Assembly (NCBI GenBank): GCA_964628025.1
Contig: CAZVLL010000005.1
Coordinates: forward strand, 667-64,666
Direction of reading: 5' to 3'
DNA from: an uncultured Syntrophaceae bacterium
GTDB taxonomy: Bacteria > Desulfobacterota > Syntrophia > Syntrophales > UBA2192
Length of the DNA stretch: 64,000 nucleotides
The position numbers and the translations under genes were made by a program. Below, in pieces: positions 6,073 to 24,995 of this stretch (positions within the stretch are counted from its first letter, which is position 1; every line of letters begins with the position of its first letter). Under the pieces are notes generated by a model. It ran no database searches, was not told the origin of the DNA, and was given only the letters and a program-made list of their open reading frames with translations.

Positions 6073-6129
6073 GGGAGAGGGAAAACCCATTCCCTGCTGT
6101 TGAATTTTTCCAGGAAAGGATCCAGTTCA

Positions 6130-9100: not shown

Positions 9101-9189
9101 CAAACTTCCAGGAAGTCGAGCTTGGCTACGCCAGGGATCTCGCCGTGAAGGAGTCGACCCGCTGCCTGCGCTGTGACGTAGAGCTGTAA
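6130..9189 (+). CDS. NuoF/HoxF-like FMN/NADH subunit fused to a GltD/NfnB-like FAD/NADPH oxidoreductase module
   Basis: 1019 aa from ATG 6130. The N-terminal [2Fe-2S] domain has LLVCGGTGCHATG and CNGFCAMGP. The NuoF core has GLRGRGGAGFPTGLKW and ESCGKCIPCREG. From about nt 7730 there is a GltD-like part with CSALFKSPCQHTCP, ACGRVCDHQC, KIAVIGAGPAGLTCA and RVAVIGGGNSAIDAA. Confidence 0.85.
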   Translation: MKVFRSHLLVCGGTGCHATGSIAVKKALVEELNKKGLAEEIKVVETGCNGFCAMGPIMVVYPEGIVYMNIQTVDVPVLVEEHFIKGRPVERLFYKEPGKEDRIPSMQEIPFFALQDLRVLRNRGLIDPENIEEYIARDGYAGMAKALTEMTPEQIVQEVLKSGLRGRGGAGFPTGLKWQFAQRSPGDIKYVLCNADEGDPGAFMDRSVLEADPHAVLEGMVIAAKAIGSGFGYIYCRAEYPLAIHRLNVALGQAREMGLLGKDILGTGFNFDIAIYQGAGAFVCGEETALMTSIEGKRGMPRPRPPFPAVAGLWAKPSVLNNVETLANIGQIMLRGGEWYAGVGTEKSKGTKVFALTGDVNNVGLVEVPMGTTLGTIVYDIGGGIPGGKKFKAAQLGGPSGGCIPVQHLNAAVDYEKVAELGAIMGSGGLIVMNEDKCAVDMARFFMDFCQDESCGKCIPCREGTKRMLEILTNICKGKGKEGDIELLESMAIVIKDASLCGLGQTAPNPVLSTIRYFRDEYVEHIRDKKCRAAVCSALFKSPCQHTCPIGMDIPAYTALIRDDRLTDAYSVLLKTNPFPSACGRVCDHQCMSKCRRGLLDEPVSIKFLKRYITDNAPRPEIKPVPMTRKEKIAVIGAGPAGLTCARDLALRGYGVKVFEELPTPGGMLSWGIPSYRLPREILGKEIDDIRKLGVEIQCGVRVGCDLPWDAVNKDFDIVYLAPGAHKSQRMGVEGEDLKGVWGGVEFLRDYNLNEAAWNDGKKSLGARVAVIGGGNSAIDAARTALRLGAEVTILYRRLREDMPAAEEEIVAAEHEGVKIEYLIAPLRIVGTGGRITGIECLRQKLGDFDSSGRKRPVAIKGSEFTLAVDTIIAAIGQTPDLTFVPKESGVSVNKWSCFDVATNGFRSGTTNPKFFAGGDAVTGPSTVIKAIAAGHEAADDIDAAIRKRNGEPAWVPPTGEEIQIPFVIDEETEECPMAHMPELEASYRKANFQEVELGYARDLAVKESTRCLRCDVEL

Positions 9190-9226
9190 CCGAAACGGCA
9201 ACCCTTGAGAAAAGGAGAAGCGAGAG

Positions 9227-11011
9227 ATGGCAAAAATACGAGTTACCCTGAACGGCCGTGAGGTCCTTGCGCCGCTGGGCGTCACGATTCTCCAGGCCGC
9301 CAATGAGGCGGGCATCGAAATCCCGACGCTCTGTCACCATCGAGCGTTGGTGCCGATCGGCGCCTGCCGGATATGCGTCGTCGAAATCAAAGGACAGCGG
9401 AACCTCCAGGCGGCATGCGCGTTCCCGATTTCGGAAGGAATGGAAATCGAGACGGAGTCGCCGAAGGTGGTGGCCGCCCGGAAACTGATTCTCGACATGC
9501 TCTTTTCCGAGCGAAACCATTACTGTCCGTTCTGCGAGATCAGCGGCGACTGTGAACTGCAGAATCTCGGGTACCGCTACGGAATCGACCACTGGGTGTA
9601 CCCGACCTACACGCAGGCATTCCCGGTGGATGCCACGCGCAAGTACTTCGTCATGGAACAGAACCGCTGCGTGCTCTGCCAGCGATGCGCCCGCGCCTGC
9701 GGCGAGCTGGTGGCCAACCACACGCTGGGGCTGCGGGAGCGGGGCGCCGGATCCATGATCCACGCCGACGCCGCCGTGCCCTTCGGCGAATCGACCTGTA
9801 TCTCCTGCGGCACCTGCATGCAGGTCTGCCCCACAGGCTCTCTTGTCGACCGGCGAAGCTCCTTCATGGGCCGCGGCGACCAGACGCAGCGCGTCAAGAG
9901 CACCTGCAACAAGTGCAGCGTCGGATGCGGCACGGAGATCGTGACGCGGGGCGGAAACGTCCTCCGTATCGAGGGAGACTGGGATGCAGCGGTGAACGGA
10001 GGCCTGCTCTGCAAGCACGGCCGGTTCGACCCGCTCTACGATGATCGAAAGCGCATCACCCAGCCTCTGCTTCGCAGGAAAGGAAAGCTGGAACCGGTAA
10101 GCTGGAACGATGCCATGCGGGCGGTGGTCAAGCAGCTCGGTGACGCCGAGGCCAAGGAGGTCGGGGTGCTCGTTTCGAGCGACGCGACCAACGAAGCGCT
10201 GTACCTGGTGGATCAGCTGTTCCGGAAAGAACTCCGCACGAAAAATATCGGGATGCCGTTCGTGGCCGCTCCCGATCTGCTCGGCAAGAAACAGGGCACC
10301 TTAGACGATCTCGCCGGAAGCGACCTGATTCTTCTGGCCGGGGCCGACCCCGCCAAGGGTCAGCCTGTCGCGGCCTTCCGGGTCAAGCGCCTCGTAGACA
10401 AGGGAGCAAGGCTGGTCGTCGTCGACGACGGAGAAAACGGGCTCGCCCCCTTTGCCGAGACGGCCCTGAAGATGGCGGACATCGACAAGGCCGTTGAGAT
10501 GGCCGACCACACCGAGCATCCCGTCGTGCTTTACGGAACGGGCATTACCGACAAGGCAGCCAAGACCCTCAAGAAACTAGGAAAGAAAGCGCGCTTCGTC
10601 GCGCTCGAGCCGGGCATCAACACCCGGGCGGCCGTGGCATTTGGGTTGAACAACGGACTCAAGGCATCGACCGCCAAGGTCCTCTATGTACTCCTGGGCG
10701 AAAAGGATTTAGACGGCGGTGAGATGCTGACGCAAATCGGTGAGGATGCCTTCGTTATCGTGCAGGCCAGCTACGCGTCGCCGCTTCTGGACAAGGCGGA
10801 CGTGATCCTCCCCGTGGCGATCTGGTCGGAGCGTCCCGGATCGCTCATCAACACCGAGGGAGTTCTCCGGATGGCCAACCAGGCCGTGGATCCCGCGGGA
10901 GAGGCCAAGCCGGACTGGGAAATCCTCTCCCTGCTGGCCGACAAACTGGGCAAACATCTCGGCGCATCCTTCGCTGACATCTCGGCCCGCGCCGCCAAGG
11001 AACTTAAGTGA
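9227..11011 (+). CDS. NuoG/HoxU-like Fe-S subunit with C-terminal degenerate molybdopterin-oxidoreductase-like domain
   Basis: 594 aa. It carries an N-terminal [2Fe-2S] (LCHHRALVPIGACRICVVE), 4Fe-4S motifs (CVLCQRCARAC, CISCGTCMQVCP) and a MopB-type cluster (CNKCSVGCG...LCKHGRF). It lacks the CAR-L-U/C-H active-site motif present in the FdhA of this same window. Confidence 0.8.
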   Translation: MAKIRVTLNGREVLAPLGVTILQAANEAGIEIPTLCHHRALVPIGACRICVVEIKGQRNLQAACAFPISEGMEIETESPKVVAARKLILDMLFSERNHYCPFCEISGDCELQNLGYRYGIDHWVYPTYTQAFPVDATRKYFVMEQNRCVLCQRCARACGELVANHTLGLRERGAGSMIHADAAVPFGESTCISCGTCMQVCPTGSLVDRRSSFMGRGDQTQRVKSTCNKCSVGCGTEIVTRGGNVLRIEGDWDAAVNGGLLCKHGRFDPLYDDRKRITQPLLRRKGKLEPVSWNDAMRAVVKQLGDAEAKEVGVLVSSDATNEALYLVDQLFRKELRTKNIGMPFVAAPDLLGKKQGTLDDLAGSDLILLAGADPAKGQPVAAFRVKRLVDKGARLVVVDDGENGLAPFAETALKMADIDKAVEMADHTEHPVVLYGTGITDKAAKTLKKLGKKARFVALEPGINTRAAVAFGLNNGLKASTAKVLYVLLGEKDLDGGEMLTQIGEDAFVIVQASYASPLLDKADVILPVAIWSERPGSLINTEGVLRMANQAVDPAGEAKPDWEILSLLADKLGKHLGASFADISARAAKELK

Positions 11012-11025
11012 AAGGAGACTCTTCC

Positions 11026-11571
11026 ATGTCAAAGATCAAGATCGCCACTGACTGGCTGGCCGGCTGCGCCGGATGCCACATGTCCCTTCTGGACATTGAC
11101 GACCGCATCCTCCCGCTGCTGGAGTTGGTGGAATTTACATCAAGCCCGGTGACGGACCTGAAGCACCCGCCGAAAGAAGGCGTGACCGTGGGAATCCTAG
11201 AGGGCGCCATCTGCAATTCGCACAACATCGAGGTGGCCAAACAGATGCGCGAACGCTGCCAGATCCTCATCGCCATCGGCGACTGCGCCACCTTTGGCGG
11301 AGTCCCGGCTATGCGCAACCTCTGCGGCACGCAGGAAGCCCTGAAGCGCGCGTACCTGGAAGCGGAAAGCAATGTGGGCGGCCTGATCCCCGACTCCCCG
11401 GAACTCGGGATACCCCTCGACGAGGTCGTCGGCATCGACAAGGTGGTGAAGGTCGATCTGTTCATCCCCGGCTGCCCCCCGAGCGCCGATGCGCTGTTCT
11501 ATGCGCTCTCGGAACTGCTCGCCGGGCGTACGCCCATCGTTCTGCCGCCCCAATATTTCAAGTACGACTAG
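11026..11571 (+). CDS. [NiFe]-hydrogenase small subunit, cytoplasmic group-3 type
   Basis: ATG at 11026 follows AAAGGAGAC. WLAGCAGCHMS...IGDCATFGG...FIPGCPP are the proximal-cluster Cys motifs of short, signal-peptide-less group-3 small subunits. Confidence 0.8.
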   Translation: MSKIKIATDWLAGCAGCHMSLLDIDDRILPLLELVEFTSSPVTDLKHPPKEGVTVGILEGAICNSHNIEVAKQMRERCQILIAIGDCATFGGVPAMRNLCGTQEALKRAYLEAESNVGGLIPDSPELGIPLDEVVGIDKVVKVDLFIPGCPPSADALFYALSELLAGRTPIVLPPQYFKYD

Positions 11572-11583
11572 AGGAGGACAGCC

Positions 11584-13014
11584 ATGAGCGCTCGCAAGAT
11601 AACCATCGAACCCGTGACGAGAATCGAAGGCCACGGGCGGGTCACGATTCATCTGAACGAACAGGGGGATGTCGATCAGACCTTCTTCCATGTGGACGAG
11701 TTCCGCGGTCTGGAGAAATTTTCCGAGGGGCGCCCCTATCTCGAAATGCCCCAGATCACCCAGCGCATCTGCGGCATCTGCCCCGTCAGCCACCACCTGG
11801 CAGCCGCCAAGGCCTGCGACGGCGTGGCACGCGTGGAGCCCACCCGGCCGGCAACGCTTTTGCGCGAGCTGATCCACATGGGCCAGTTCATCCAGTCCCA
11901 CGGGATGCATTTCTTCCACCTGGCCGCGCCGGATCTTCTCCTGGGCTTTGACGCCGACCCGGCGACACGCAACGTCTTCGGAATCATCAAGGCCAACCCG
12001 GAGCTGGCCGTCAAGGCCGTGCACCTTCGCCGTTTCGGACAGCAGATCATTTCGCGGCTCGGGGGCGGCAAACGCGTCCATCCCAATCTCTGCGTCCCCG
12101 GCGGGGTCAACGCCCCTCTCACCTCTGAGGACCGCGACGCCATCGCCGCCGAGCTCGACGGCATGACCGAGATCGGAAAGGTCGCACTCAGCATCGCGCG
12201 GGGCTGGCTGGAGTCCAACCGGGAGCTCGCCGATACCTTTGCCGCGTTCCCGTCCAACTACATGGGGCTCGTCGACGAGGAAGGGGGCCTGCAGCTTTAC
12301 GACGGAGAGATCCGCATCAAAGACGCCGAGGGGAAATACCTCGCCCAGTTCAGGACGGATGCCTACCTGTCCCACATCGCCGAACACGTGGAGCCCTGGT
12401 CATTCCTCAAGCACCCCTACTACCGCAAGCAGGGATTCCCGCAGGGCTTCTACCGCGTCGGCCCGCTGGGGCGGATGAACGTGATCGACAAGATCGGCAC
12501 ACCTCTGGCCAACGAGGAGTTCAAGCAATTCAGGACGCTCAACGGCGGCAGGCCCGTCGAAGGGTCTCTTTACTACCACTACGCCCGGATGATCGAGCTG
12601 CTCTACAGCCTCGAGCGCGTCGGCCAGCTGCTGGACGACCCGGATATCCTCTCCAGGGATGTCCGCAATTATCCGAAGCTGCAGCTTCCCGGACAGGGAG
12701 TCGGCGTGATTGAAGCGCCCCGGGGGACCCTGATCCACGACTACAGCACCGATGAAAACGGCATTCTGACGAGGGTGAACCTCATCGTGGCCACGGGCAA
12801 CAACAACTGGGCCATGCACACGGCGTCGGGCTCCGTGGCAAAGGCCTTCGTAAAGGGCAACTCGCTCACGGAAGGCATGCTCAACCGCGTCGAGGCGGCC
12901 ATCCGCTGCTACGATCCGTGCCTGTCCTGCGCGACCCATGCCATAGGCAAGATGCCGCTGGACGTCACGCTCATCGCTGCCGACGGGACCGTGCTGGACC
13001 GCGTCTCACGCTAG
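11584..13014 (+). CDS. [NiFe]-hydrogenase large subunit, group 3
   Basis: 476 aa. It has the N-terminal RICGICPVSH and C-terminal DPCLSCATH Ni-Fe ligand motifs, followed by a C-terminal extension for endopeptidase processing. Confidence 0.9.
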   Translation: MSARKITIEPVTRIEGHGRVTIHLNEQGDVDQTFFHVDEFRGLEKFSEGRPYLEMPQITQRICGICPVSHHLAAAKACDGVARVEPTRPATLLRELIHMGQFIQSHGMHFFHLAAPDLLLGFDADPATRNVFGIIKANPELAVKAVHLRRFGQQIISRLGGGKRVHPNLCVPGGVNAPLTSEDRDAIAAELDGMTEIGKVALSIARGWLESNRELADTFAAFPSNYMGLVDEEGGLQLYDGEIRIKDAEGKYLAQFRTDAYLSHIAEHVEPWSFLKHPYYRKQGFPQGFYRVGPLGRMNVIDKIGTPLANEEFKQFRTLNGGRPVEGSLYYHYARMIELLYSLERVGQLLDDPDILSRDVRNYPKLQLPGQGVGVIEAPRGTLIHDYSTDENGILTRVNLIVATGNNNWAMHTASGSVAKAFVKGNSLTEGMLNRVEAAIRCYDPCLSCATHAIGKMPLDVTLIAADGTVLDRVSR

Positions 13015-13805: not shown

Positions 13806-13844
13806 GACGGGCACTCTTCTCAAGGACGGGCACTCTTCTCAAGG
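13806..13844. repeat. perfect 19-bp tandem duplication (ACGGGCACTCTTCTCAAGG x2) at the 3' end of the Hcp-like gene
   Basis: Units at 13807-13825 and 13826-13844 are identical. The stop codon of the minus-strand gene (13820-13822) lies inside the first unit. Confidence 0.9.
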
Positions 13845-14383
13845 GCAGTCGGCCCGCCCGTCCATATCCATTCGGCGCCCTCGTAGGTGAACGAGACCTG
13901 TTCGTAGGTCTCCAGTTTCACTTGATCCGGAATTCTCACGTTCGGCATGACGGTTTTGATCGAAACGATTCGTGCGCTTGTGAGCTTTACCGTATAATTT
14001 TGAACTTCTGTGCCTCCGCCACCGGCCGCACCGCCTACATTCGGAGCCCAGAATTTAATGGTCGCGTCCGGGATGAGCTCGTTATTGAGCAACATCGTCC
14101 GGAGCACCGGCGACGATTTGTCGATCTCCTTCGTGATGGTGATCTGACCGGAACGCAGGCGCCCCGTCGTCATGCCCGTTGCTGCATCTGTTGCGATCCT
14201 CGACTCCTGATCGAATGCGATAACCCCGATGGAGCCCTCTCTTCCCTTCTGCGTGACACCGCCATAAACAGGCCCCGTTTTCTGCCCTTTGACGTAAAGG
14301 TTTGCCATGATTGCAGCGCTGGCAAGGGCTGTAAACACGAACGTAAATGTGACGACGAACACGACAATGGCTTTTTTCCGCAT
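13820..14383 (-). CDS. Hcp (TssD)-like protein carrying an N-terminal Sec-type signal peptide
   Basis: 187 aa. It is collinear with enterobacterial Hcp/TssD as recalled from memory: REGSIGVIAF, TGMTTGR...ITITKEIDKSSPVL, KFW, YTVKLTSARIVSIKTVMPN, ETYEQVSFTYEGAEWIW. The N-terminus MRKKAIVVFVVTFTFVFTALASAAIMA looks like a signal peptide. Confidence 0.7.
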   Translation of the reverse strand: MRKKAIVVFVVTFTFVFTALASAAIMANLYVKGQKTGPVYGGVTQKGREGSIGVIAFDQESRIATDAATGMTTGRLRSGQITITKEIDKSSPVLRTMLLNNELIPDATIKFWAPNVGGAAGGGGTEVQNYTVKLTSARIVSIKTVMPNVRIPDQVKLETYEQVSFTYEGAEWIWTGGPTALEKSARP

Positions 14384-14490: not shown

Positions 14491-15747
14491 TCAGAACAGT
14501 CCCTTGAGTTTGTTCAGTGTCCCCTTGATGGTCTCGGTGGCCCCGCCGCTCTCCTCACTGGCCGGTTGATCGCCCCGCTTCTGCCGGCTTTCTTTTGACC
14601 TGCCGCCTTCCTTCATTTCCTCCATTCCAAGCGGGAGCATTCCGGTAGACTTGTTCCTCAGCTTCATGGCCCAGATATAGTCATGAGGCTTGGTCGAGTC
14701 TTTTGGCTTTGGCGGATAGGCGATGTTCAACTCATCGCCGTAGCCGATGAACTGCAGCACTGCCCCTTTTCCGTCCTTGAATATGCCCCTGGGTACCGAA
14801 CAGCTTGTTACCTCGGGCCCCATAACCACCTTCTCCCTGATGAACCTGCTGACATCTGCCGGGGAGAGATAGTTTATCAGGCCGAAGCCTGGATCCTGAA
14901 CCTCGCTGGACGACCAGATGATGGTCTCGCCGGTCTGCTCGTTATGGCCCATCGCCACGGAAAAATAGCCGATTGCCGTGGGGATCTTCTTCCACTGGAA
15001 TGCGATACTTTCTGTCAACCCTCCCTTGACGGCGGTAAATTCAACAGGCGCCATGAAGTCATGCCTCTCGCCAACGGCGAATTTAATATCCGGGGTGTAA
15101 TTGCCGTGGATGAAGTGGCTTCCCAGTAAGGAACTGCTTTTCGGCACACTCTGCTGATCGCTCTTGTTGGGCCATTCCGAATAGGCCCATCCTGTCCTCG
15201 GGGATGGTGGAACCTGACCCGACCCGGAGCGGCCCGCCATGGCCTTTCCGAATTCGATCATGCTCATCTTCTCGGTGTCAAGGACCCTCGGTTGTCCCGG
15301 TCGCACCGTCTCGCTGCACCCCCAGTAAAAGAGCATGCGCACCTTGGGTTTTTCCACCTCTCGGTCTGACCCTTCTCCACTGCGCACCGGCTTTTCACGC
15401 TCGGGAATCAGAAGAGGCAGGGTCTTGCCCATATCCAGGCCGGGAGGGATGTCGTGGGTTGCTTCCGGGGCTGCCGGGGGAGTGCCCGGTGCACTGAGTT
15501 GCAAAAGGAGGCTTCTCTTCGGCCCCATTCCCCCGGGCATCATTTTTCCCATGAGCATTCCCTGCATTCCCGTCATTTCTCCCTGCGGCATGCCTGGAAT
15601 ACTTGTATTTTGTATTGCAACACTCACCCAGTACTGGGTTACAGGTTTTTTTTGCTCTTTCTCCGCCGCGCTCACAAGCGAAACAGAAAAGAAAAGAATC
15701 ATTGCCAGAATCGTGCAGCACGATTTTGAGAGAAGAGTCATGTCCAC
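14491..15747 (-). CDS. secreted hypothetical protein with Met/Gly/Pro-rich N-terminal region
   Basis: 418 aa. It has a signal peptide (ILAMILFFSVSLVSAAEK), then IPGMPQGEMTGMQGMLMGKMMPGGMGP, and a basic/acidic tail. No family was recognised. Confidence 0.6.
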   Translation of the reverse strand: MDMTLLSKSCCTILAMILFFSVSLVSAAEKEQKKPVTQYWVSVAIQNTSIPGMPQGEMTGMQGMLMGKMMPGGMGPKRSLLLQLSAPGTPPAAPEATHDIPPGLDMGKTLPLLIPEREKPVRSGEGSDREVEKPKVRMLFYWGCSETVRPGQPRVLDTEKMSMIEFGKAMAGRSGSGQVPPSPRTGWAYSEWPNKSDQQSVPKSSSLLGSHFIHGNYTPDIKFAVGERHDFMAPVEFTAVKGGLTESIAFQWKKIPTAIGYFSVAMGHNEQTGETIIWSSSEVQDPGFGLINYLSPADVSRFIREKVVMGPEVTSCSVPRGIFKDGKGAVLQFIGYGDELNIAYPPKPKDSTKPHDYIWAMKLRNKSTGMLPLGMEEMKEGGRSKESRQKRGDQPASEESGGATETIKGTLNKLKGLF

Positions 15748-15880: not shown

Positions 15881-15909
15881 TTGACACGCAATTTTCTTTA
15901 TTCTATCTT
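15881..15909 (+). promoter_or_regulatory. candidate sigma70-type promoter of the + strand secreted-protein operon
   Basis: TTGACA (15881-15886), a 17-nt spacer, then TATCTT (15904-15909), within the AT-rich divergent intergenic region. Confidence 0.3.
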
Positions 15910-15973: not shown

Positions 15974-17152
15974 ATGAGGCATCCACATTCTCGTTTGCGT
16001 CGGTTTTCTTGTTCAATTTTCATGTTGCTCCTGAGTGTCGGTCTGCTTTCACATCCTGTGTCGACAACAGATGTCAGGGCACAGTGGCCGCCTCCCCAGG
16101 ACGCTGCTGCACAAAATCCCCAGGATGTTCCCTCTCAACCGTATCCATCCGGTGAGACCGTCCCTCCCTCCATGCAGTCTCCCACGCAGTCTCAGTCGCC
16201 GATCCAATCGCCACTGAAACAGCAAAGCCAGAAAAGAGGGCAGTCACAGCAACAACAACAGGGCATGCCTTCCGCACCGGGATACCCGCAGGCTTCCCCC
16301 GGTTATCCGCAAGCGGCCCCGATGCAGGGCCCTCAGCAACCGCAGACGAGCTACCCTCAGGGAGCACAAGGGGGAAGTCAGTGGGGCCAGCAGCAACAGT
16401 CGCCTTACCCCCAGGGACCGGCCCAGGGCGGTCAACAGCAGCAGATGATTTACCCGCAGGGAGCAACTGTGCCGGGGAATGTTCCCATGCAGACCGACGC
16501 CTGGGGTCAACCCGTTCCGACGCAGGGTGGCCAGCAGCAGACGGGCTACCCGCAAGGAGTGCAAGGAGGTCAGTGGGGCCAGCAGCAGCAACAGCCGCCT
16601 TACCCCCAGGGACCGGCCCAGGGCGGTCAACAGCAGCAGATGATTTACCCGCAGGGAGCAACTGTGCCGGGGAATGTTCCCATGCAGACCGACGCCTGGG
16701 GTCAACCCGTTCCGATGCAGGGTGGCCAGGTTCCACAGCCCGGGGTTTATCCGCAAGCACAGCCTGGACAGCCGGGGATGATGCCACAGCCCGCCATGCC
16801 TGCCGCCGCACCCCAGGGCTGCAATGTCCAACTCAGCCAGGACCGTCAGACCGTGATTTTGAAGGACTCTGCGGGTCAGGACAGAGATCACATATCGCTG
16901 GGTGAGGACCGCGTTCAGAAGATTTTCAAATCAAAAGAAGGCAGCTGGTCTTTCGTCGTTTTCAAGGTCAGGCGCGTGGAGCAATTCGGAGCTTTTGCCA
17001 TCGACCTGTCCAGTTGCCAGGCGCAGGACCTCGTCGAGATATCGGCGGTGCCGACAGATGCGGCCTTCGAGGGAGAGGACATTCTCCTGACTTTTTCGGG
17101 AGGGAAGACAACACGGCTCAAGCTCGTGAACAGAGTCATCGTCGAGAAGTAG
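15974..17152 (+). CDS. secreted Q/P/G/Y-rich (prion-like, low-complexity) repeat protein with a globular C-terminal domain
   Basis: 392 aa. A signal-like N-terminus (FMLLLSVGLLSHPVS) is followed by about 240 aa of YPQG/QGGQQQQ-type repeats. An ordinary-composition C-terminal domain begins at CNVQLSQDRQTVILKD. Confidence 0.7.
   Translation: MRHPHSRLRRFSCSIFMLLLSVGLLSHPVSTTDVRAQWPPPQDAAAQNPQDVPSQPYPSGETVPPSMQSPTQSQSPIQSPLKQQSQKRGQSQQQQQGMPSAPGYPQASPGYPQAAPMQGPQQPQTSYPQGAQGGSQWGQQQQSPYPQGPAQGGQQQQMIYPQGATVPGNVPMQTDAWGQPVPTQGGQQQTGYPQGVQGGQWGQQQQQPPYPQGPAQGGQQQQMIYPQGATVPGNVPMQTDAWGQPVPMQGGQVPQPGVYPQAQPGQPGMMPQPAMPAAAPQGCNVQLSQDRQTVILKDSAGQDRDHISLGEDRVQKIFKSKEGSWSFVVFKVRRVEQFGAFAIDLSSCQAQDLVEISAVPTDAAFEGEDILLTFSGGKTTRLKLVNRVIVEK
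16381..16729 (+). repeat. tandem duplication (period ~192-195 bp) inside the Q-rich gene
   Basis: 16402-16520 is identical to 16597-16715 (119 nt). After a single mismatch, identity resumes through GCAGGGTGGCCAG. The block encodes PYPQGPAQGGQQQQMIYPQGATVPGNVPMQTDAWGQPVP twice. Confidence 0.9.
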
Positions 17153-17213
17153 CCGTGATTCGTGATCGGTGGCAATCAAAACGCACAAGCATCGATGGAG
17201 GAGTAACGATTCA

Positions 17214-17972
17214 ATGAAACGCGACAAATGGATTCTTGTACTGCTGTCGATAATGCTTTCCGTTCTGCTCTGCGCCCACGTCTCGATGGCGGCGGGGCTT
17301 TTCGGCGACGATGAGGACGCCGTCGTCGACGATTCCGGGACGAGCAAGAAGCTGAAAAACCTGAAGCGGCAAGCGGGACCCAAGCCCGTCGTTGCCATTT
17401 ATGATTTCAGGAGCACGGTCCCTGACGTCCCCACGGCATCGGCACTGGACATGTTTGTCACAGCCCTGGTGAAATCGGGGGCATTCACCGTCGCAGAGCG
17501 TCAGAGAATACAGGAGGGCGTCTCCAAGGAACGGCAATTCCAGGCATCCGGTGCTGCAACCGGACGGGCCGCCAACACCAAGTTTGCAGGCGCCCAGTAC
17601 ATTTTTGAAGCTGCGGTGACCGAAGGCAATCCCAACGAAAAGCAATCGGAAGGAAACATCAGCGTCGGGGGAATGGAGATGGGGCGCGCCGGGGTTACCG
17701 ATTCGATTGGTCTTGACGTACGGATCATCAGCGCCGAGACGGGCCTGGTGATCGACTCCGTGAATGTTCGCAAGAAAATCGAGGCGGCCCAGGGAGGCGT
17801 TTCCGGTATCGGAAAACTGGCCCAGAGTGTCGCGGGCCTTTACAAGAAATCCGTGCCGCTCAATCCCGATGCGAATGTGAAAATTGCCAGGAAGGAAAGC
17901 GTCGACAAGGCCCTGAGATCCTGCATCGAAGCGGCTGTTCTGGAACTGGCGAAGAGGCTTTCTGAGGATTGA
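17214..17972 (+). CDS. CsgG/HfaB-family outer-membrane secretion channel-like protein
   Basis: ATG at 17214 follows GGAGG. It is collinear with E. coli CsgG as recalled: VAIYDFRS..., ALDMFVTALVKSGAFTVAERQ, AQYIFEAAVTEGN, IGLDVRIISAETGLVIDSVNV. A signal peptide is present. Confidence 0.7.
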   Translation: MKRDKWILVLLSIMLSVLLCAHVSMAAGLFGDDEDAVVDDSGTSKKLKNLKRQAGPKPVVAIYDFRSTVPDVPTASALDMFVTALVKSGAFTVAERQRIQEGVSKERQFQASGAATGRAANTKFAGAQYIFEAAVTEGNPNEKQSEGNISVGGMEMGRAGVTDSIGLDVRIISAETGLVIDSVNVRKKIEAAQGGVSGIGKLAQSVAGLYKKSVPLNPDANVKIARKESVDKALRSCIEAAVLELAKRLSED

Positions 17973-17974
17973 GC

Positions 17975-18607
17975 ATGAAACACAAAAGGGCGAATCCGTT
18001 CCTCATCCTTTTTTTCATGGTTGCTGCTGGTGTGATGTGTCCGGATGCGGCGCTTTGTCATGAGAAAGACATCATCCCTGCTTATGTGATGTATGCCGAC
18101 GATTATCCGCTTCATGTCAGTTTTTTCTTTGAGGGTGGAAGCCCGATCGAGCGAATGACAGGCAGAAGGGAAAAGTGGTACGCCCTGTATGAATCCTCTC
18201 TACGTCCCGGGTATTATCGGATCATGTTAAAGCACGGCGGCGAGCCGTCCAGTGTGAGGCTGTACGTGCTGGAAAGCGAACCATCGGAGCGGTTCAATGC
18301 CAGGCTGGAGCTTCCCCTGGAACGGGTTACGTTTTATGACAATTCTCGTCGCAACTATCACCTGTATCAGTCGAATATCGGCATTGCAGGTGATTTCAAA
18401 AGGACGAACATCCATTTCATATTGGAGTGGACGCCGCCTCCGGGAAGACATGAACCGATCCAGGCATCGTTTCAGATCATAACTCTATCCCATACGGAGG
18501 ACAACAACCGGCAATCTTCGTCATTTTTTTCCGATAAGTGGACGGTGCGCAGTCCCCTGGAAAGCCAGAACCGCCGGGGACCGATCATATTGCCCAACTC
18601 GAAATAG
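17975..18607 (+). CDS. secreted hypothetical protein
   Basis: ATG at 17975 lies 2 nt after the csgG-like stop. Signal peptide is MKHKRANPFLILFFMVAAGVMCPDAALC. No family was recognised. Confidence 0.55.
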   Translation: MKHKRANPFLILFFMVAAGVMCPDAALCHEKDIIPAYVMYADDYPLHVSFFFEGGSPIERMTGRREKWYALYESSLRPGYYRIMLKHGGEPSSVRLYVLESEPSERFNARLELPLERVTFYDNSRRNYHLYQSNIGIAGDFKRTNIHFILEWTPPPGRHEPIQASFQIITLSHTEDNNRQSSSFFSDKWTVRSPLESQNRRGPIILPNSK

Positions 18608-18684
18608 CCCGGATAGTCAATTCATCTCCATCAGCGGGGCGGGAGATTCTGCCGGATGTTCCTAAGCGATGGTCCGAGTCGACC

Positions 18685-19194
18685 ATGAACACCGATAACG
18701 GGTGTAAGAGAGGTAATCCATGCCACGGGTGCCCTGCGCCGTGTTGCCAGGTTCAGCTCCATCACTACCAGGCCCCTGCCACCTTGAAGGATCTTGACAT
18801 GGCAAGATACCGGCTCCTCTATCCAAAAACGGAATTCGTCTTTTGCGATACGGGGGACTGGTATCTGCTCCACTGGAAAACATGCTCCTTTTTTCTACGA
18901 GAAACATGTGCTTGTTCCGTGCACAGTTCTTCCCAGAAACCACAGATATGTGACTCTTTCAATCAAGACGATTGCTGGTTTAAACAGAATTTTATCGAAG
19001 CCCCCGAAAAGACCGTCATCCGGATTGATCTCCTGCGTTTCGAGCGTTTGCTGCAAGAGGTAAGACAGACGGAATCGGGGGGAAATGTTCTATTGCCGCC
19101 TTTCGAAGAATCACGCCGCATCGTCTCAGGAATTCCAGTTTCACCTGCCTTTTCCCCCGTCTACCCTGAGGCGGAAGCGGCCCTCGATGCATGA
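18685..19194 (+). CDS. cytoplasmic Cys-cluster protein (YkgJ/CxxCxxCC-like zinc- or iron-chelating domain)
   Basis: The internal ATG at 18685 (MNTDNGCKRGNPCHGCPAPCCQ...) is preferred over the track start at 18538. It is Cys-rich (CHGCPAPCC, CSFFLRETCACS, CDSFNQDDC). Confidence 0.45.
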   Translation: MNTDNGCKRGNPCHGCPAPCCQVQLHHYQAPATLKDLDMARYRLLYPKTEFVFCDTGDWYLLHWKTCSFFLRETCACSVHSSSQKPQICDSFNQDDCWFKQNFIEAPEKTVIRIDLLRFERLLQEVRQTESGGNVLLPPFEESRRIVSGIPVSPAFSPVYPEAEAALDA

Positions 19195-19664
19195 ATCAAC
19201 AAAGGAGGAAGATCATGGCTCTCGTTCGAAGAAGTGTTCACTATACCGTATGGATCGCAGGGTTTCTCGTATCCATGGTGTTTAGCTGGTTTGGATGGTC
19301 TGTCCCCCCATTTGCCGAGGCAGCCAGGATAAAAGCCCCGCGCGTATTTACCTCAGACCAGGCCCTGCAACAGAGCATCCCTTTCACGAAGCAGTTGAAT
19401 GAAGAGACGTCGCGGAGGTTGCTGGCGGATGCCGCCACTGCGCCCAAACCGGACACCTATCAAGGGCAGGTTCCCGTATCCCAGCCGAGACAAGCCTTCA
19501 AGCTGGAGGACAAAAAGGAACTGAAACCATCCCGGTTGCCTGATAAGGAAACGTCTCAACCCAAGCAAGCGTTGAAACTGGAATCCGTCGCCCCCTCAAG
19601 CATGCCGTCGAAAAAGGCGCCACAGACCACACAGCCCCTGCAGACCATGACGAAGACGGATTAG
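19191..19664 (+). CDS. membrane-anchored or secreted hypothetical protein with an internal SQP[RK]QA[FL]KLE repeat
   Basis: 157 aa. Its start overlaps the previous stop (ATGA). It has one hydrophobic segment (VWIAGFLVSMVFSWFGW) and a K/P/Q/S-rich tail. Confidence 0.5.
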   Translation: MNQQRRKIMALVRRSVHYTVWIAGFLVSMVFSWFGWSVPPFAEAARIKAPRVFTSDQALQQSIPFTKQLNEETSRRLLADAATAPKPDTYQGQVPVSQPRQAFKLEDKKELKPSRLPDKETSQPKQALKLESVAPSSMPSKKAPQTTQPLQTMTKTD

Positions 19665-19750
19665 GCACGTGCCGGATCCGGAGATCTTCCGCCCATGATG
19701 ACAAGGAAATGCATGGATCTCTCTCGTGAATGGGAATCAGAGGTGTGGGA

Positions 19751-20515
19751 ATGAATCAACCCCAGGATCCACGCATCTATCTTCTCGGTTCCGGTATCTT
19801 CAGTTTCTACGACTTGACCCTGTACACCCAGCATTTGCTTCAAGAGTGCAAATCCGTTTTTTACCTGCACGATCTTCCGTCCCTTGAGCGGCATATCACC
19901 CGACTCAAACCGGATGCGGTCAACCTGATGCCGCTCTACTATATCGACGGCAGGAACAGGACAACGATTTATTCGGATATCACAAAACACATCCTCCAGA
20001 GTGCCCGGGAAAATCCACCGGTGGCCTTTTTGATGCATGGCCATCCACTGGTCTTTTCCTCCATTTCTCAACTGATTATCGAGGAAGGAGAGAAATCGGG
20101 CATACCTGTTGAAGTGGTTCCAGCTGTTTCTTCCCTGGACCGAATGTTTGTGGATCTGAATCTGGATATTGCTGACAGGGGAATTCAGATTTTTCACACA
20201 TCCATGGCCATTGCGAATCATCTGACATTGAATCCCCATGTCGACAGCCTCTTTTTGCAGATCGGGTCCGTCGGCGACAACACGGCAAGGCGCAACGAAA
20301 CAGTCTCTCTTGAAGGTGTCCGCTCCTTCAGTCAGTATCTGCTCGATTTCTATCCGGGCCATCATGATGTCATCGTCATAGAATGTGCGATTGAACTGGG
20401 GTTTGAGAGCAGACTCACAGAGATAACGATCGACCGTCTGCCGGAGGCGGCCCTGGCGTTCAATTACAATGCCAGTGCATACGTACCTGCTCTTTCGAAG
20501 TCATTTTCACCATAA
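19751..20515 (+). CDS. borosin-type (OphMA-like) peptide alpha-N-methyltransferase, TP_methylase superfamily, stand-alone (split) form
   Basis: It is collinear with the fungal OphMA methyltransferase domain as recalled from memory. Matching segments are IYLLGSGI / IVGTGI, SVFY / KVFY, LYYIDGRNRTTIY / YYDNGKSRLNTY, HGHPLVF / YGHPGVF, VPAVSSLDRMFVDLNLD / LPGVSAEDCLFADLCID, LFLQIGSVG / LVLFQVGCVG and AYVPA / FYIPP. Confidence 0.6.
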   Translation: MNQPQDPRIYLLGSGIFSFYDLTLYTQHLLQECKSVFYLHDLPSLERHITRLKPDAVNLMPLYYIDGRNRTTIYSDITKHILQSARENPPVAFLMHGHPLVFSSISQLIIEEGEKSGIPVEVVPAVSSLDRMFVDLNLDIADRGIQIFHTSMAIANHLTLNPHVDSLFLQIGSVGDNTARRNETVSLEGVRSFSQYLLDFYPGHHDVIVIECAIELGFESRLTEITIDRLPEAALAFNYNASAYVPALSKSFSP

Positions 20516-20648
20516 AAGCGACAAGAATGGCCGTACCGAATATAAAATCGTTTTTCAATCACTGCCAACACAAAGACGAACAGCAGACATGGAAAAATTG
20601 GCAGTGATCTACACGATTATTTTTTATCAGAAACAGGGAGGGAATGTG

Positions 20649-22076
20649 ATGGCTCTGAACACGAGACGATTACAGACAGTACTGATGGGAATGGCGATGC
20701 TTCTTTTTATTTGCGTGGGCATGATGCCGTCGCCTGCCGAATCAGCGGAGACCGGAACGTTTCCCGGCGGGCCTGACAATGCTGCAACTCTCCTTGCGCA
20801 ATTGCAGACCTCACCCGTGAGGCCGGTTGTCCCGTCTGTTCCCAAAACGGCCATCCAACAAAAGGCGAATCTGACGTGTCCGTCCGGGGCGCCGATTTCC
20901 TCCTCCACCGCGGGGTGCCTTAAGGTCGTCTGGTCCAAGAAGATCTGCAATGAAGACGGCAGGCAGTCGGTTCAGTTTTCACCGAACAATATGGACGTTG
21001 ACTGGCAGGGAGGGCGGATATTCGCCGGGTCGTACGAAACGAACAGGGATTATGGAACCGCCCTTCAACGATTGCGCGCGTTTCGTTTCTCCGATGGAGC
21101 ACAGATATGGGAAAAACGCAATACAAGCAAAACCATAATTTATTTCGGGGCCCTGGCCTATACCAATGGACGGATCTTCAACAGCTGGACCGGGCTCGAC
21201 GCCTTCAACGCCAATGACGGCTCACTCTTGTGGCAAGCCCCCCCATTCATCGGGGGCGGCGGCTACAGCAATGCCTGGATAATCGCCAAGAATCAGAATC
21301 TTTACGCGAATCCGACCATTTTCGATAAATCTACTGGCCAATCCCTCCAATATCTCCAGGTCCTCGATCAGGCAACCGGTACGGAACGCTTGCGATATAA
21401 AACGGGCTGGTTATATAGCCAGCCACTGATCATCGGCAATGCTGCCTATGCCAACATGGGGATTAGCGGCATGGTCTTCCTGGATCTGGGGAAGCCTGCA
21501 TTGATGTGGAGTATCGCGCCTTCCGGTCTGTCCAAGACCTCTAAAGGTTTCTACAACAATCAGGTTTACCTGGGAGTCGGCAGTGAAATCTTTGCCGTGG
21601 ACAGCGCCACCGGGAAGATTACGCAACGATATGCCCTGCCAAAATGTGTAACATACACGAACAATCCCGGGCAACAATACTGCTTCAACTACGCGAAAGG
21701 TGTCCTCTCGCCATTCACCTTATCCATCGACCGGGCTGTTTTCATTAACAGCAGCGGTGATCTTCAGGCCCTCAATCTCCAGACCGGATCCCTTCTCTGG
21801 AGTACCTTAGCCGGTGGTTCCACGACAATCTATGAGAATATCGCTCCAGCGGTTGTCAACGGGGTCGTCATCACATCTTCCTGGAAAACTACCTACAATG
21901 CGAGTAATCTCAGTGTAAACACCTATGGCGTGAATGTCTATGATGTCACCAGCGGTCAAGAGCTGGCCAGCGTGCCCACCGGCACTTTGATGGTTCTTGA
22001 TATTAAAGTGGCCCCCGACGGTTCCGCCATCGTGGTTCGAACACCGGAAGATCTCATATTCCTGGCAACACGTTAA
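20649..22076 (+). CDS. secreted PQQ-like (BamB-like) beta-propeller repeat protein
   Basis: ATG at 20649 follows GGGAGGG. It has a signal peptide (LMGMAMLLFICVGMMPSPAESA) and repeated ...DG(S/A)xxW... blades (SDGAQIWEK, NDGSLLWQAP, TGSLLWST). Confidence 0.7.
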   Translation: MALNTRRLQTVLMGMAMLLFICVGMMPSPAESAETGTFPGGPDNAATLLAQLQTSPVRPVVPSVPKTAIQQKANLTCPSGAPISSSTAGCLKVVWSKKICNEDGRQSVQFSPNNMDVDWQGGRIFAGSYETNRDYGTALQRLRAFRFSDGAQIWEKRNTSKTIIYFGALAYTNGRIFNSWTGLDAFNANDGSLLWQAPPFIGGGGYSNAWIIAKNQNLYANPTIFDKSTGQSLQYLQVLDQATGTERLRYKTGWLYSQPLIIGNAAYANMGISGMVFLDLGKPALMWSIAPSGLSKTSKGFYNNQVYLGVGSEIFAVDSATGKITQRYALPKCVTYTNNPGQQYCFNYAKGVLSPFTLSIDRAVFINSSGDLQALNLQTGSLLWSTLAGGSTTIYENIAPAVVNGVVITSSWKTTYNASNLSVNTYGVNVYDVTSGQELASVPTGTLMVLDIKVAPDGSAIVVRTPEDLIFLATR

Positions 22077-22107
22077 CCTTTCGCGCGAAAAAGCAATTCC
22101 ATCAATA

Positions 22108-22140
22108 AAGGCAGGGTCGATTCGATCCTGCCTTTTCTTT
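22108..22140. terminator. intrinsic terminator between convergent genes
   Basis: The stem AAGGCAGG...CCTGCCTT is followed by TTTCTTTT. Confidence 0.6.
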
Positions 22141-24416: not shown

Positions 24417-24995
24417 ATGACAAGATCGATCAAGGGAACCAGGACAGAAAAAAATCTCCTTGCGGCCTTTTCAGGCGAGGCCCAGGCAAGGAACCGCTAT
24501 ACCTATTTCGCCGGTGCCGCGAAGAAGGAAGGCTTCGAGCAGATCGCTGCCATCTTCCTGGAGACGGCCGAAAACGAGAAAGAACATGCAAAAGTGTTTT
24601 TCAAGTACCTGGAGGGTGGCGACGTGGAGATCACGGCAGCCTACCCGGCCGGTGTGATCGGCGACACGAAGGCCAACCTCGAAGCTGCCGCCCGAGGCGA
24701 ATACCACGAATGGTCGACCCTGTATGCCGATTTCGAGAGAGGGGCCCGGGAGGAGGGTTTCCCGGAGATCGCCGGTTCCTTCCGCGAGATCGCCGAAGTG
24801 GAACAGATCCACGAAGCGCGGTATCGGAAACTGCTGGCCAACATCGTGAACGGAGAAGTCTTCCGGAAGAAATCGCCCGTCAAGTGGCACTGCCGAAACT
24901 GCGGCTACGTCCATGAAGGCGCCGAGGCACCCGAAACGTGCCCCGCCTGCAATCACCCGAAGGCCTATTACGAAATCCTTGCGGAGAATTACTAA
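24417..24995 (+). CDS. rbr: rubrerythrin
   Basis: 192 aa. TEKNLLAAFSGEAQARNRY...ENEKEHA...EVEQIHEARY is the diiron four-helix-bundle part. A C-terminal rubredoxin domain carries CRNCGY...CPACNHP. Confidence 0.9.
   Translation: MTRSIKGTRTEKNLLAAFSGEAQARNRYTYFAGAAKKEGFEQIAAIFLETAENEKEHAKVFFKYLEGGDVEITAAYPAGVIGDTKANLEAAARGEYHEWSTLYADFERGAREEGFPEIAGSFREIAEVEQIHEARYRKLLANIVNGEVFRKKSPVKWHCRNCGYVHEGAEAPETCPACNHPKAYYEILAENY

Follow-up and report, generated by a model that had tools for sequence, protein, structure and literature searches.

The 64-kb stretch of DNA analysed here (64,000 nucleotides of contig CAZVLL010000005.1 from an uncultured Syntrophaceae bacterium; "the window" means this whole stretch) contains at positions 19215–20515 a pair of adjacent genes that we consider, on balance, to be a two-gene split-borosin cassette without a borosin-binding domain (BBD). 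The downstream gene encodes a stand-alone homologue of the borosin-type alpha-N-methyltransferases (MTs). The upstream gene encodes a multi-repeat protein, the candidate precursor, which on this reading would receive its backbone methyl groups in the cytoplasm before export. The enzyme is homologous to the characterised borosin MTs and conserves their key residues, the two genes are syntenic, the upstream protein has a repeat structure, and no BBD is detectable. The positions of the features are collected in Table 1.

Identity of the enzyme

The open reading frame (ORF) of the enzyme covers 19730–20515 on the forward strand. Within it the ATG at 19751, preceded 7 nt upstream by the Shine–Dalgarno sequence GAGGTG, gives a 254-aa product identical to the database protein P0001. 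An earlier note on this DNA had likened this product to the MT domain of the fungal enzyme OphMA. All four of the strings that it quoted (LYYIDGRNRTTIY, HGHPLVF, VPAVSSLDRMFVDLNLD and LFLQIGSVG) are found in the translation, and the OphMA strings that it gave are correct, as comparison with the OphMA sequence in SI Table S1 of 10.1101/2024.01.09.574750 shows. BLASTP recovers the collinear match (E = 4e-19, 25% identity over 174 residues with one gap) and pairs the segments that the note named: LYYIDGRNRTTIY with OphMA YYDNGKSRLNTY, HGHPLVF with YGHPGVF, VPAVSSLDRMFVDL with OphMA LPGVSAEDCLFADL, and LFLQIGSVG with LVLFQVGCVG. The enzyme is 9 residues shorter than SonM, the stand-alone MT of Shewanella oneidensis, and since its end falls short by this length, no C-terminal core peptide or binding domain is fused to it; the lack of a fused core peptide had also been stated in the note.

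The sole Pfam family found on the enzyme is the generic PF00590 TP_methylase (1.2e-17, 65 bits against a cut-off of 27.8). A phmmer search of the PDB is more specific, with SonM at 5e-19, MroMA at 1.5e-15, dbOphM at 1.5e-14 and OphMA at 3e-13; the best 25 distinct matches are characterised borosin alpha-N-methyltransferases and the first corrin enzyme appears at 1.2e-5. When a family profile (A1), made from an alignment of 36 enzyme homologues, was compared with the PDB, SonM (3e-29), dbOphM (3e-27) and OphMA (1.5e-24) were again found, and the next non-borosin match, a corrin enzyme, lay at 0.0096. The AlphaFold2 (AF2) model of the enzyme (pLDDT 86.4) shows alternating beta and alpha elements, and the top 50 Foldseek matches of this model in the PDB are all borosin N-methyltransferases (NMTs; E ~5e-21), with a probability of 1.00 to SonM, OphMA and MroMA. 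By hidden Markov model (HMM), BLAST and fold searches alike, the enzyme groups with SonM, OphMA, dbOphMA and MroMA and not with the CobA/CysG-type enzymes, and its assignment as a borosin-type MT homologue of the SonM/OphMA lineage, with methylation as its predicted activity, is supported by these sequence comparisons. Each of the computational checks suggested in the note favoured its reading.

The residues found by mutagenesis to be important in SonM (Y58, R67 and Y71) are kept, which bears out the substrate-clamp match drawn earlier. By alignment, enzyme Y63 corresponds to SonM Y58 and enzyme R70 to SonM R67 and OphMA R72, both being conserved in at least 90% of the 36 homologues, whilst enzyme Y74, corresponding to SonM Y71 and OphMA Y76, is invariant among them. 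Mutation of Y58, R67 or Y71 in SonM lowers the catalytic efficiency (kcat/KM) 14- to 100-fold, with no activity left in R67A or in the Y58F/Y71F double mutant (PMC8429565). SonM F99 and Q167 are also conserved in the enzyme; SonM W166 is Leu in the clade. The borosin rule of antiSMASH uses two motifs, YGHP (YGHP_v3) and DCLFAD (DCLFAD_v3) (10.1101/2021.12.24.474128), and both have a counterpart here by alignment. That of YGHP is HGHPLVF, in which G97 and P99 are invariant and the change of Tyr to His is the one departure from the signature. That of DCLFAD is SSLDRMFVDL (LDRMFVDL), aligned with SAEDCLFADL in OphMA, in which S127, D130 and L136 are invariant and L129 and D135 at least 90% conserved over the same 36 homologues.

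A corrin or siroheme identity was tried and rejected: the NCBIfam models cobA_cysG, cobI and CysG score 25, 23 and 16 bits against cut-offs of 185, 163 and 400, respectively, and the corrin/siroheme models overall give 16–25 bits against cut-offs of 93–400. A YabN identity was rejected likewise, the score being 52.5 bits against a cut-off of 525, over model positions 4–223 of 486 only and without the MazG domain. No cobalamin, haem or siroheme genes are present in the neighbourhood of the enzyme.

Extent of the enzyme clade

A search of 5.8 billion proteins returned 61 enzyme clusters with E-values no higher than 1e-47, beyond which the matches fall away to 1e-23. In an HMMER scan of 1.84 billion representatives at 50% identity, three matches scored 363, 340 and 248 bits, and the next score was 198 bits. 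The gaps in score in both of these large searches indicate that the enzyme clade is a discrete subfamily. A scan of genome contigs with a single query matched only Geobacter sp. OR-1, whose homologue (WP_041969518.1) is 77% identical to the enzyme. Public pipelines label members of the clade "tetrapyrrole methylase" or "YabN", and many homologues carry the JGI label "YabN with tetrapyrrole methylase and pyrophosphatase domain". The OR-1 enzyme is present in the tree of SspM homologues of the RODEO borosin preprint, so the clade has been seen previously; neither it nor its neighbours in the tree were found in the part of the preprint's precursor table that was available.

The upstream repeat protein

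The note had expected one of the neighbouring genes, or an unannotated small ORF, to encode the substrate. A gene with this character is found directly upstream of the enzyme gene on the same strand, 87 bp away, and both genes have a good Shine–Dalgarno sequence, that of the upstream gene (AAGGAGGA, 19202–19209) being strong. Its 149-aa product is the sole universally syntenic partner of the enzyme and carries tandem repeats like many borosin cores. It has no match in Pfam or NCBIfam, and its family consists of 18 unnamed database clusters.

Genomic contexts were gathered from the window contig, Geobacter sp. OR-1, four metagenome-assembled genomes and ~15 metagenome contigs. In every one of them the gene directly 5' of the MT encodes a protein of 110–225 aa built on one three-part plan: MA.[IV][KR][KR] followed by 17–29 uncharged residues and PPxWA at residues 30–34, then a conserved helical segment of ~30–40 residues, and then the tandem repeats. 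When all ORFs of 70 aa or longer lying no more than 6 kb from the enzyme in 14 loci were clustered all against all, only two families proved to be present in more than four loci, the enzyme (14/14) and the upstream protein (13/14), once the antisense shadows of the MT gene (8 loci) are set aside. The 14th locus (L025) holds a 5'-truncated copy at the end of a contig in which PQQAKK repeats are still visible. The association persists to 39% enzyme identity, the pair being intact in locus L026.

The repeat unit has the short consensus Q-P-x-Q-A-[M/F/L]-K-[L/I] and occurs in 2–9 tandem copies per precursor, with a spacing between units of 8–26 residues. Among 62 units from 14 proteins, the four defining residues Q, P, Q and A are present in 61, 60, 62 and 56, respectively, and the logo reads Q P [Q/K/R] Q A [M/R/N/L] [K/A/R] [L/I/A/M] [K/L/E]. 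The precursors of loci L015 and L014 carry eight copies of QPQQAMKLK. In the window protein there are two full units and a degenerate one at the C-terminus, QPLQTMTKTD, at the site of which the OR-1 precursor has QPKQAMTKTD. The motif QP.QA is found in-frame in no other ORF of the window. The AF2 model of the precursor has helices at residues 5–27 (pLDDT > 90) and 57–73 only, and the rest is disordered (pLDDT < 60). Repeated core motifs are typical of borosin precursors (10.1101/2024.01.09.574750), examples being RceA, SliA and AinA. From these features of its sequence and position, the upstream repeat protein is probably the substrate of the enzyme.

Other candidates for the substrate were considered. 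The beta-propeller, CsgG-like, 212-aa and Q/P-rich proteins encoded nearby are not conserved at other loci and were rejected, as was the Cys-rich 169-aa protein, which is confined to the closest clade. A six-frame listing combined with cross-locus clustering revealed no conserved hidden small ORF except the antisense shadows of the MT gene. One of these, a 234-aa antisense ORF at 19661–20365 (−), is not a gene candidate; it appears conserved in other loci because it shadows the reading frame of the MT. Rfam and tRNA scans found nothing near the cassette.

Three observations on the wider family may be added. Proteins at L017 1890–2234 and L018 659–994, together with P0075–P0078, have the same N-terminus and helical segment, with short D[IT]RMGKFLGDQP repeats replacing QPxQA; in this subfamily the core is diversified and the leader part kept. 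At L004 4199–4654 the public gene call begins at an internal Met (4292) and loses the signal-like N-terminus, whilst the longer ORF fits the family, and similarly mis-called starts may hide further members in the databases. In one lineage a secreted M10 metallopeptidase (L027 626–1960) precedes the pair and is a candidate maturation protease; the same locus encodes a 1567-aa protein on the opposite strand after the pair, common to L019.

The signal-like N-terminus

In all of the 16 precursors compared, the N-terminal n-region has a net charge of +2 to +4 and is followed by 17–29 uncharged residues, with a maximum Kyte–Doolittle mean over 15 residues of 1.9–2.5. A small-x-small motif (AWA, AEA or SWA) is present at residues 32–36 in 15/16, and the position of the family motif PPxWA at residues 30–34 is fixed across the precursors. 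By the classical n/h/c rule we infer that the N-terminus serves either as a Sec signal peptide or as a signal anchor that leaves the C-terminus outside. No signal peptide is found on the enzyme.

Search for a borosin-binding domain

Characterised borosins mostly rely on a five-helix BBD, carried either on the precursor (types IV, IX and X) or on the enzyme (types 0–III and V–VIII), and only some Legionellales borosin clusters are without one. The enzyme of the window, of 254 aa with no extension, has none. The profile of the precursor family has no match in the PDB. An HMM of the BBDs of SonA, SahA, SanA, ParA and SspA found nothing among 3477 segments from positions 14–24 kb of the window and from the loci (best E = 3.9); this is a weak test, since an NHLP-like leader used as the control was barely detected (E = 7.8). 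We also aligned the NHLP/BBD-like leaders of fused relatives (A5). This alignment matches nitrile hydratase alpha and NHLP leaders in the PDB, not SonA, and hhalign comparison of the A5 leaders with the precursor and with the Cys-rich protein gave a probability of 0.1% in each case. The remark that no neighbour resembles the known BBD-containing precursors thus held, in that none is detectable in precursor, enzyme or neighbours by these insensitive sequence tests, and this fits the suggestion of a possibly new substrate class.

The leaders themselves are found in more distant relatives of the enzyme (L024 2687–3729; P0100, P0103, P0131 and P0132), where a helical NHLP/BBD-like segment has the consensus D..FR..L...P..AL..Y.LT.EE..AL. 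It is placed either on a separate upstream protein (L024) or at the N-terminus of the MT with a Pro-rich linker, an arrangement resembling type 0. A further distant MT homologue (P0062, 30% identity) lies in a different RiPP-like cluster (RiPP, a ribosomally made peptide with post-translational modifications) at L028 4500–10320, together with a YcaO-TfuA fusion, PhyH, a 2OG-Fe oxygenase, an M6 peptidase and a 91-aa protein with an NHLP-like leader.

Genomic context

Table 1 Positions of the cassette and associated features in the window
Feature	Position	Strand	Basis
Clade-specific accessory gene, 169 aa, eight invariant Cys: CX2CX3CC (residues 13–21) and C67, C77, C89, C97	18685..19194	+	Alignment A4, 5 homologues
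Candidate precursor/substrate, 149 aa (= P0072): signal-peptide-like N-terminus, short helix, disordered Q/K/P-rich repeats	19215..19664	+	Synteny, Shine–Dalgarno
Sec-type signal-peptide-like or signal-anchor segment, N-terminal 36 residues: MALVRR, 28 uncharged residues, PPFAEA	19215..19322	+	AF2 helix, n/h/c features
Repeat unit 1, QPRQAFKLE, aa 90–98	19482..19508	+	Motif scan; fits 62-unit family logo
Repeat unit 2, QPKQALKLE, aa 115–123	19557..19583	+	Motif scan
Degenerate C-terminal unit, QPLQTMTKTD, aa 140–149	19632..19661	+	Alignment of window and OR-1 precursors
Stand-alone borosin-type alpha-N-methyltransferase homologue, 254 aa	19751..20515	+	Pfam, PDB searches, family profile, BLASTP, AF2/Foldseek
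Secreted PQQ_2/BamB-like beta-propeller, context only	20649..22076	+	Pfam PQQ_2 2.9e-11; absent from cross-locus neighbour clusters

The pair lies in a run of seven genes on one strand (15974–22076), in the order Q/P-rich secreted protein, CsgG-like protein, 212-aa protein, Cys-rich protein, precursor, enzyme and PQQ-type beta-propeller. The gaps range from a 4-nt overlap to 133 nt, with 6/7 under 90 nt, and the run is bounded by a promoter-like site at 15881–15909 and a strong terminator-like hairpin at 22107–22135. Sharing with other loci is confined to the last four positions of the run and is general only for the precursor–enzyme pair.

The Cys-rich gene is found 5' of the precursor only in the window and in loci L003 (OR-1), L010 and L022. 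Its family comprises 5 database clusters, all unnamed, and is upstream of the precursor–MT pair wherever context is available. The Pfam family PF03692 (CxxCxxCC) scores a borderline 22.5 bits on the protein against a cut-off of 23, and NCBIfam gives no match to the family, FliB or other, at E ≤ 1. Judging by its cysteine pattern, the protein probably binds a metal or an Fe-S cluster.

The first three genes of the run (15974–18607, +), with gaps of 0–17 nt, encode a Q/P/G-rich secreted protein with two long internal repeats (15974–17152, +), a CsgG-like protein (Pfam CsgG 1e-18; 17169/17214–17972, +) and the secreted 212-aa protein that completes the stretch. The presence of curli-type secretion genes beside a Gln-rich exported repeat protein is suggestive; the arrangement is seen in the genome of the window only.

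The GC content at third codon positions (GC3) is 0.54–0.68 across 13.8–22.1 kb, against 0.77–0.85 in the flanking Hox hydrogenase, OYE and BrkB genes, and the GC content of the MT gene is 0.494. Since GC3 is below that of the flanks, horizontal acquisition of the whole block from 13.8 to 22.1 kb, Hcp included, is suggested by base composition. The Hcp/TssD (type VI secretion tube) gene at 13820–14383 (−) is isolated, with no other type VI secretion genes nearby, and adjoins a gene for a Met/Gly/Pro-rich secreted protein of 418 aa (14491–15747, −). Further upstream, at 6100–13014 (+), is a four-gene cluster for an NAD(P)-linked [NiFe] hydrogenase of the Hox type, consisting of a Nuo51/NADH_4Fe-4S/Pyr_redox fusion, a molybdopterin-fold/2Fe-2S subunit, and the small and large subunits, and a rubrerythrin is encoded at 24417–24995. 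An anaerobic or microaerophilic host is only suggested by the rubrerythrin, the NiFe hydrogenase and the relative in Geobacter sp. OR-1.

Proposed mechanism and alternatives

From these observations we infer a substrate, sites of methylation, an order of events and a route of export as follows. The enzyme would be a cytoplasmic peptide-backbone (alpha-N) methyltransferase dependent on S-adenosylmethionine (SAM) and, by analogy with its relatives, is probably a dimer. In the cytoplasm it would bind the upstream protein at its unfolded repeat region, recognising it via the QPxQA motif, via the conserved N-terminal and helical segments, or via both. The clamp formed by Tyr63, Arg70 and Tyr74 would hold the extended peptide and activate the backbone amide, and backbone amides in or just after each QPxQA unit would be methylated, the likeliest sites being the alternating hydrophobic residues (M-K-L or F-K-L) by analogy with L63 and I65 of SonA. 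Methylation would be completed before export, and the modified protein would then pass through Sec with removal of the signal peptide. The outcome would be an N-methylated repeat protein that resists proteases and is located in the periplasm or extracellularly, or else peptides released from this protein by cleavage. In the closest clade the eight-cysteine, putatively metal-binding protein may act as an extra partner.

Several points weigh against this picture. The methyltransferase activity of the whole clade is a prediction from sequence. The invariant His of the clade, H96, replaces SonM Y93 and OphMA Y98, the Tyr of YGHP; Y93F of SonM keeps ~50% of kcat (a ~two-fold loss) with a 3.8-fold higher KM for SAM (PMC8429565), and among the next-nearest relatives of the clade the position is variable (Y/H/V/L/P/D). 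The Foldseek TM-scores of the enzyme model to SonM and OphMA are only ~0.45, probably because of how the two domains are oriented to each other in the model. The nearest non-borosin relatives, the YabN_N-like domains, have no PDB entry, so that the contrast seen in the PDB searches does not include the nearest outgroup, and a score of 52.5 bits is still reached with the NCBIfam model of YabN. Characterised split borosin enzymes mostly need a BBD for substrate affinity. Some members of the precursor family are poor in repeats (L008 and L020) and one subfamily has different repeats (DxRMGKFLGDQP). No protease or transporter is conserved beside the pair in the 14 loci. Finally, a Sec signal on the substrate of a cytoplasmic enzyme would demand that modification take place before translocation. 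SAM is cytoplasmic and, the enzyme itself being without a signal peptide, methylation would have to precede translocation.

Four alternatives were weighed against the cassette reading. The first, which we regard as rather unlikely, is that the repeat protein is an intact secreted or membrane-anchored envelope protein, and that its backbone is methylated as a protein modification (for example to withstand proteases or to prevent beta-sheet aggregation) rather than a step in the maturation of a RiPP precursor. This would account for the lack of any protease, transporter or tailoring gene conserved with the pair and would suit substrates of 110–225 aa with signal-like N-termini. Envelope or secreted neighbours are present in several loci, in the window among others the CsgG-like gene and the Q/P-rich secreted repeat protein, and types IX and X already provide examples of borosin substrates that are whole proteins in size. 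On the other hand, the multi-copy short units, variable spacers and K/R-rich flanks look like those of multi-core precursors such as RceA, and RiPP proteases are often encoded elsewhere in the genome.

A bolder form of the cassette reading, to which we give only a low probability, assigns two roles to the signal-like N-terminus (MA.I[KR][KR]...F.FS..HL.PPxWA, 34 residues). It would serve as the leader that recruits the BBD-less enzyme and then as the Sec signal, and the cell would secrete a backbone-N-methylated Gln-rich repeat protein or peptides from it. In the genome of the window, such a product may cooperate with the adjacent CsgG-like channel and with the Q/P-rich repeat protein that is secreted; it might, for instance, be an N-methylated agent that blocks or modulates the assembly of beta-sheets (amyloid-like).

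A second alternative, less probable still, accepts the enzyme as genuinely of the borosin type and takes the upstream protein for either a tether to the membrane or an envelope protein that is co-transcribed yet unrelated, the substrate being distal, the Cys-rich protein or another neighbour. The absence of a BBD on the upstream protein and a signal peptide that points away from the cytoplasm are in keeping with this, and the published survey, in which no local precursor could be identified for 733 putative NMTs, allowed for distally encoded ones. Against it, the synteny of the pair holds in 14 loci to 39% enzyme identity whilst all other neighbours vary, and the upstream protein has the repeated-motif character by which borosin cores are recognised; the Cys-rich protein is limited to one clade and the six frames contain no other conserved small ORF except the antisense MT shadows.

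It is very improbable that the methylation falls on side chains of the repeats, on the Gln carboxamide of QPxQA or the Lys that follows, rather than on the backbone. The near-invariance of Gln at positions 0 and +3 (61/62 and 62/62) and the frequent K or R at +6 would be explained by it, the amide of the Gln side chain resembles a backbone amide in its chemistry, and the TP_methylase fold does host N-methylation away from the backbone, as in diphthine synthase, of which the enzyme has a weak NCBIfam match. The residues corresponding to those that hold the backbone in SonM (Y58, R67 and Y71) are nevertheless conserved, all of the characterised close relatives are backbone methyltransferases, and an invariant QPxQA might just as well flank the methylated residues as a motif for recognition or cleavage. 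The last alternative, an ordinary tetrapyrrole (CobA/CysG/precorrin) or YabN-like methylase, is favoured by the Pfam family name, the JGI labels and the weak YabN score, but is effectively refuted by sequence tests, given corrin, siroheme and YabN scores all far below their cut-offs, no MazG domain, a profile match to SonM (3e-29) far better than that to the best corrin enzyme (0.0096), no cobalamin or siroheme genes nearby and a conserved partnership with a repeat protein.

Novelty and significance

The enzyme adds a new member to a family already known. The class of the precursor, being BBD-less with a Sec-like signal and a QPxQA multi-repeat core, is apparently undescribed, and these three features have not been described for characterised borosins. 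The strings QPQQAMK, QPKQAMK, QPRQALK and QPQQAM were not found in the literature searched, nor were QPQQAMK, QPKQA, QPRQA and PPAWA in those parts of the supplements of the RODEO borosin preprint that were available. The same preprint lists 733 putative enzymes without a precursor, which "may represent new borosin architectures". A clade of at least 61 sequence clusters now gains a concrete candidate precursor family, and the functional annotation of the enzymes of the clade as YabN or tetrapyrrole methylase is corrected.

Backbone N-methylation confers protease resistance and membrane permeability on peptides. The borosin enzymes are, to our knowledge, the only ribosomal route to it, and each new enzyme–substrate logic is therefore a potential biocatalyst. 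If the cassette reading is true, a bare borosin enzyme recognises its substrate either via short motifs that recur or via a signal-like leader, Sec can serve as a route for N-methylated products, and a simple motif becomes available for engineering repeated N-methylation. Should the signal also prove to be the leader, the cassette would yield the first borosin-type product to be secreted by means of a Sec leader and would add a mode of recognition new to the enzyme family. For RiPP enzymology the cassette offers a concrete lead that is easy to test; it would be a conceptual surprise only if the idea of the signal as leader, with export, is true.

Comparison with known systems

SonM, with its precursor SonA (type IV, Shewanella oneidensis, PDB 7LTC, PMC8429565), is the best match to the enzyme in both sequence and fold (5e-19, profile 3e-29, Foldseek 5e-21), at an identity of only ~23–25%. 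The two systems share a stand-alone enzyme of ~255–263 aa and a separate adjacent precursor. SonA differs in being bound through a five-helix BBD and in having a single core with two methylations, whereas the precursor family of the window has no detectable BBD, a signal-peptide-like N-terminus and 2–9 tandem QPxQA units.

The BBD-less split borosins of the Legionellales (LepM and related; "class 4" in PMC11395268, BoroLeg HMMs in 10.1101/2024.01.09.574750) likewise have a separate MT and core and no BBD in the cluster. Their listed precursors differ in being ~50–55 aa long, without the hydrophobic N-terminus and without QPxQA repeats, and they belong to another bacterial lineage; no sequence similarity was found between the Legionellales and the QPxQA precursors.

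In the type V system RceM/RceA of Rhodospirillum centenum, RceA is likewise largely one short unit repeated (ELSGGELDVA, nine copies). Here the BBD is fused to the enzyme, in contrast to the bare enzyme of the window, the repeats are unrelated, and RceA is without a signal-like N-terminus. The fungal enzymes OphMA, dbOphMA and MroMA (types I–III) have a homologous, collinear MT domain over ~174–250 residues, in which R72 and Y76 are kept and the YGHP and DCLFAD regions are recognisable. They differ in carrying BBD and core at the C-terminus of the enzyme, with methylation in trans within a homodimer, whereas the enzyme of the window is unfused. The YabN_N-like domains (cd11723), used as the outgroup in borosin studies, have the same fold and supply the public annotation label of the homologues; unlike them, the enzyme is without a MazG pyrophosphatase domain, scores ten-fold below the YabN cut-off, and has the SonM-type Arg-x3-Tyr clamp and a repeat-protein partner.

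The likeness of the Cys-rich protein to PF03692 (CxxCxxCC/YkgJ) and FliB would be one of analogy and not of membership. FliB is a much larger protein than the 169-aa Cys-rich protein. Both have eight conserved Cys, with CX4CX3CC in FliB, the [4Fe-4S] flagellin lysine methylase (PMC8598068), against CX2CX3CC here.

Since no BBD was detected on precursor or enzyme, the cassette fits the BBD-less "class 4" and not type IV proper. Its architecture resembles that of "class 4", its enzyme that of type IV, and its multi-repeat core that of type V (RceA).

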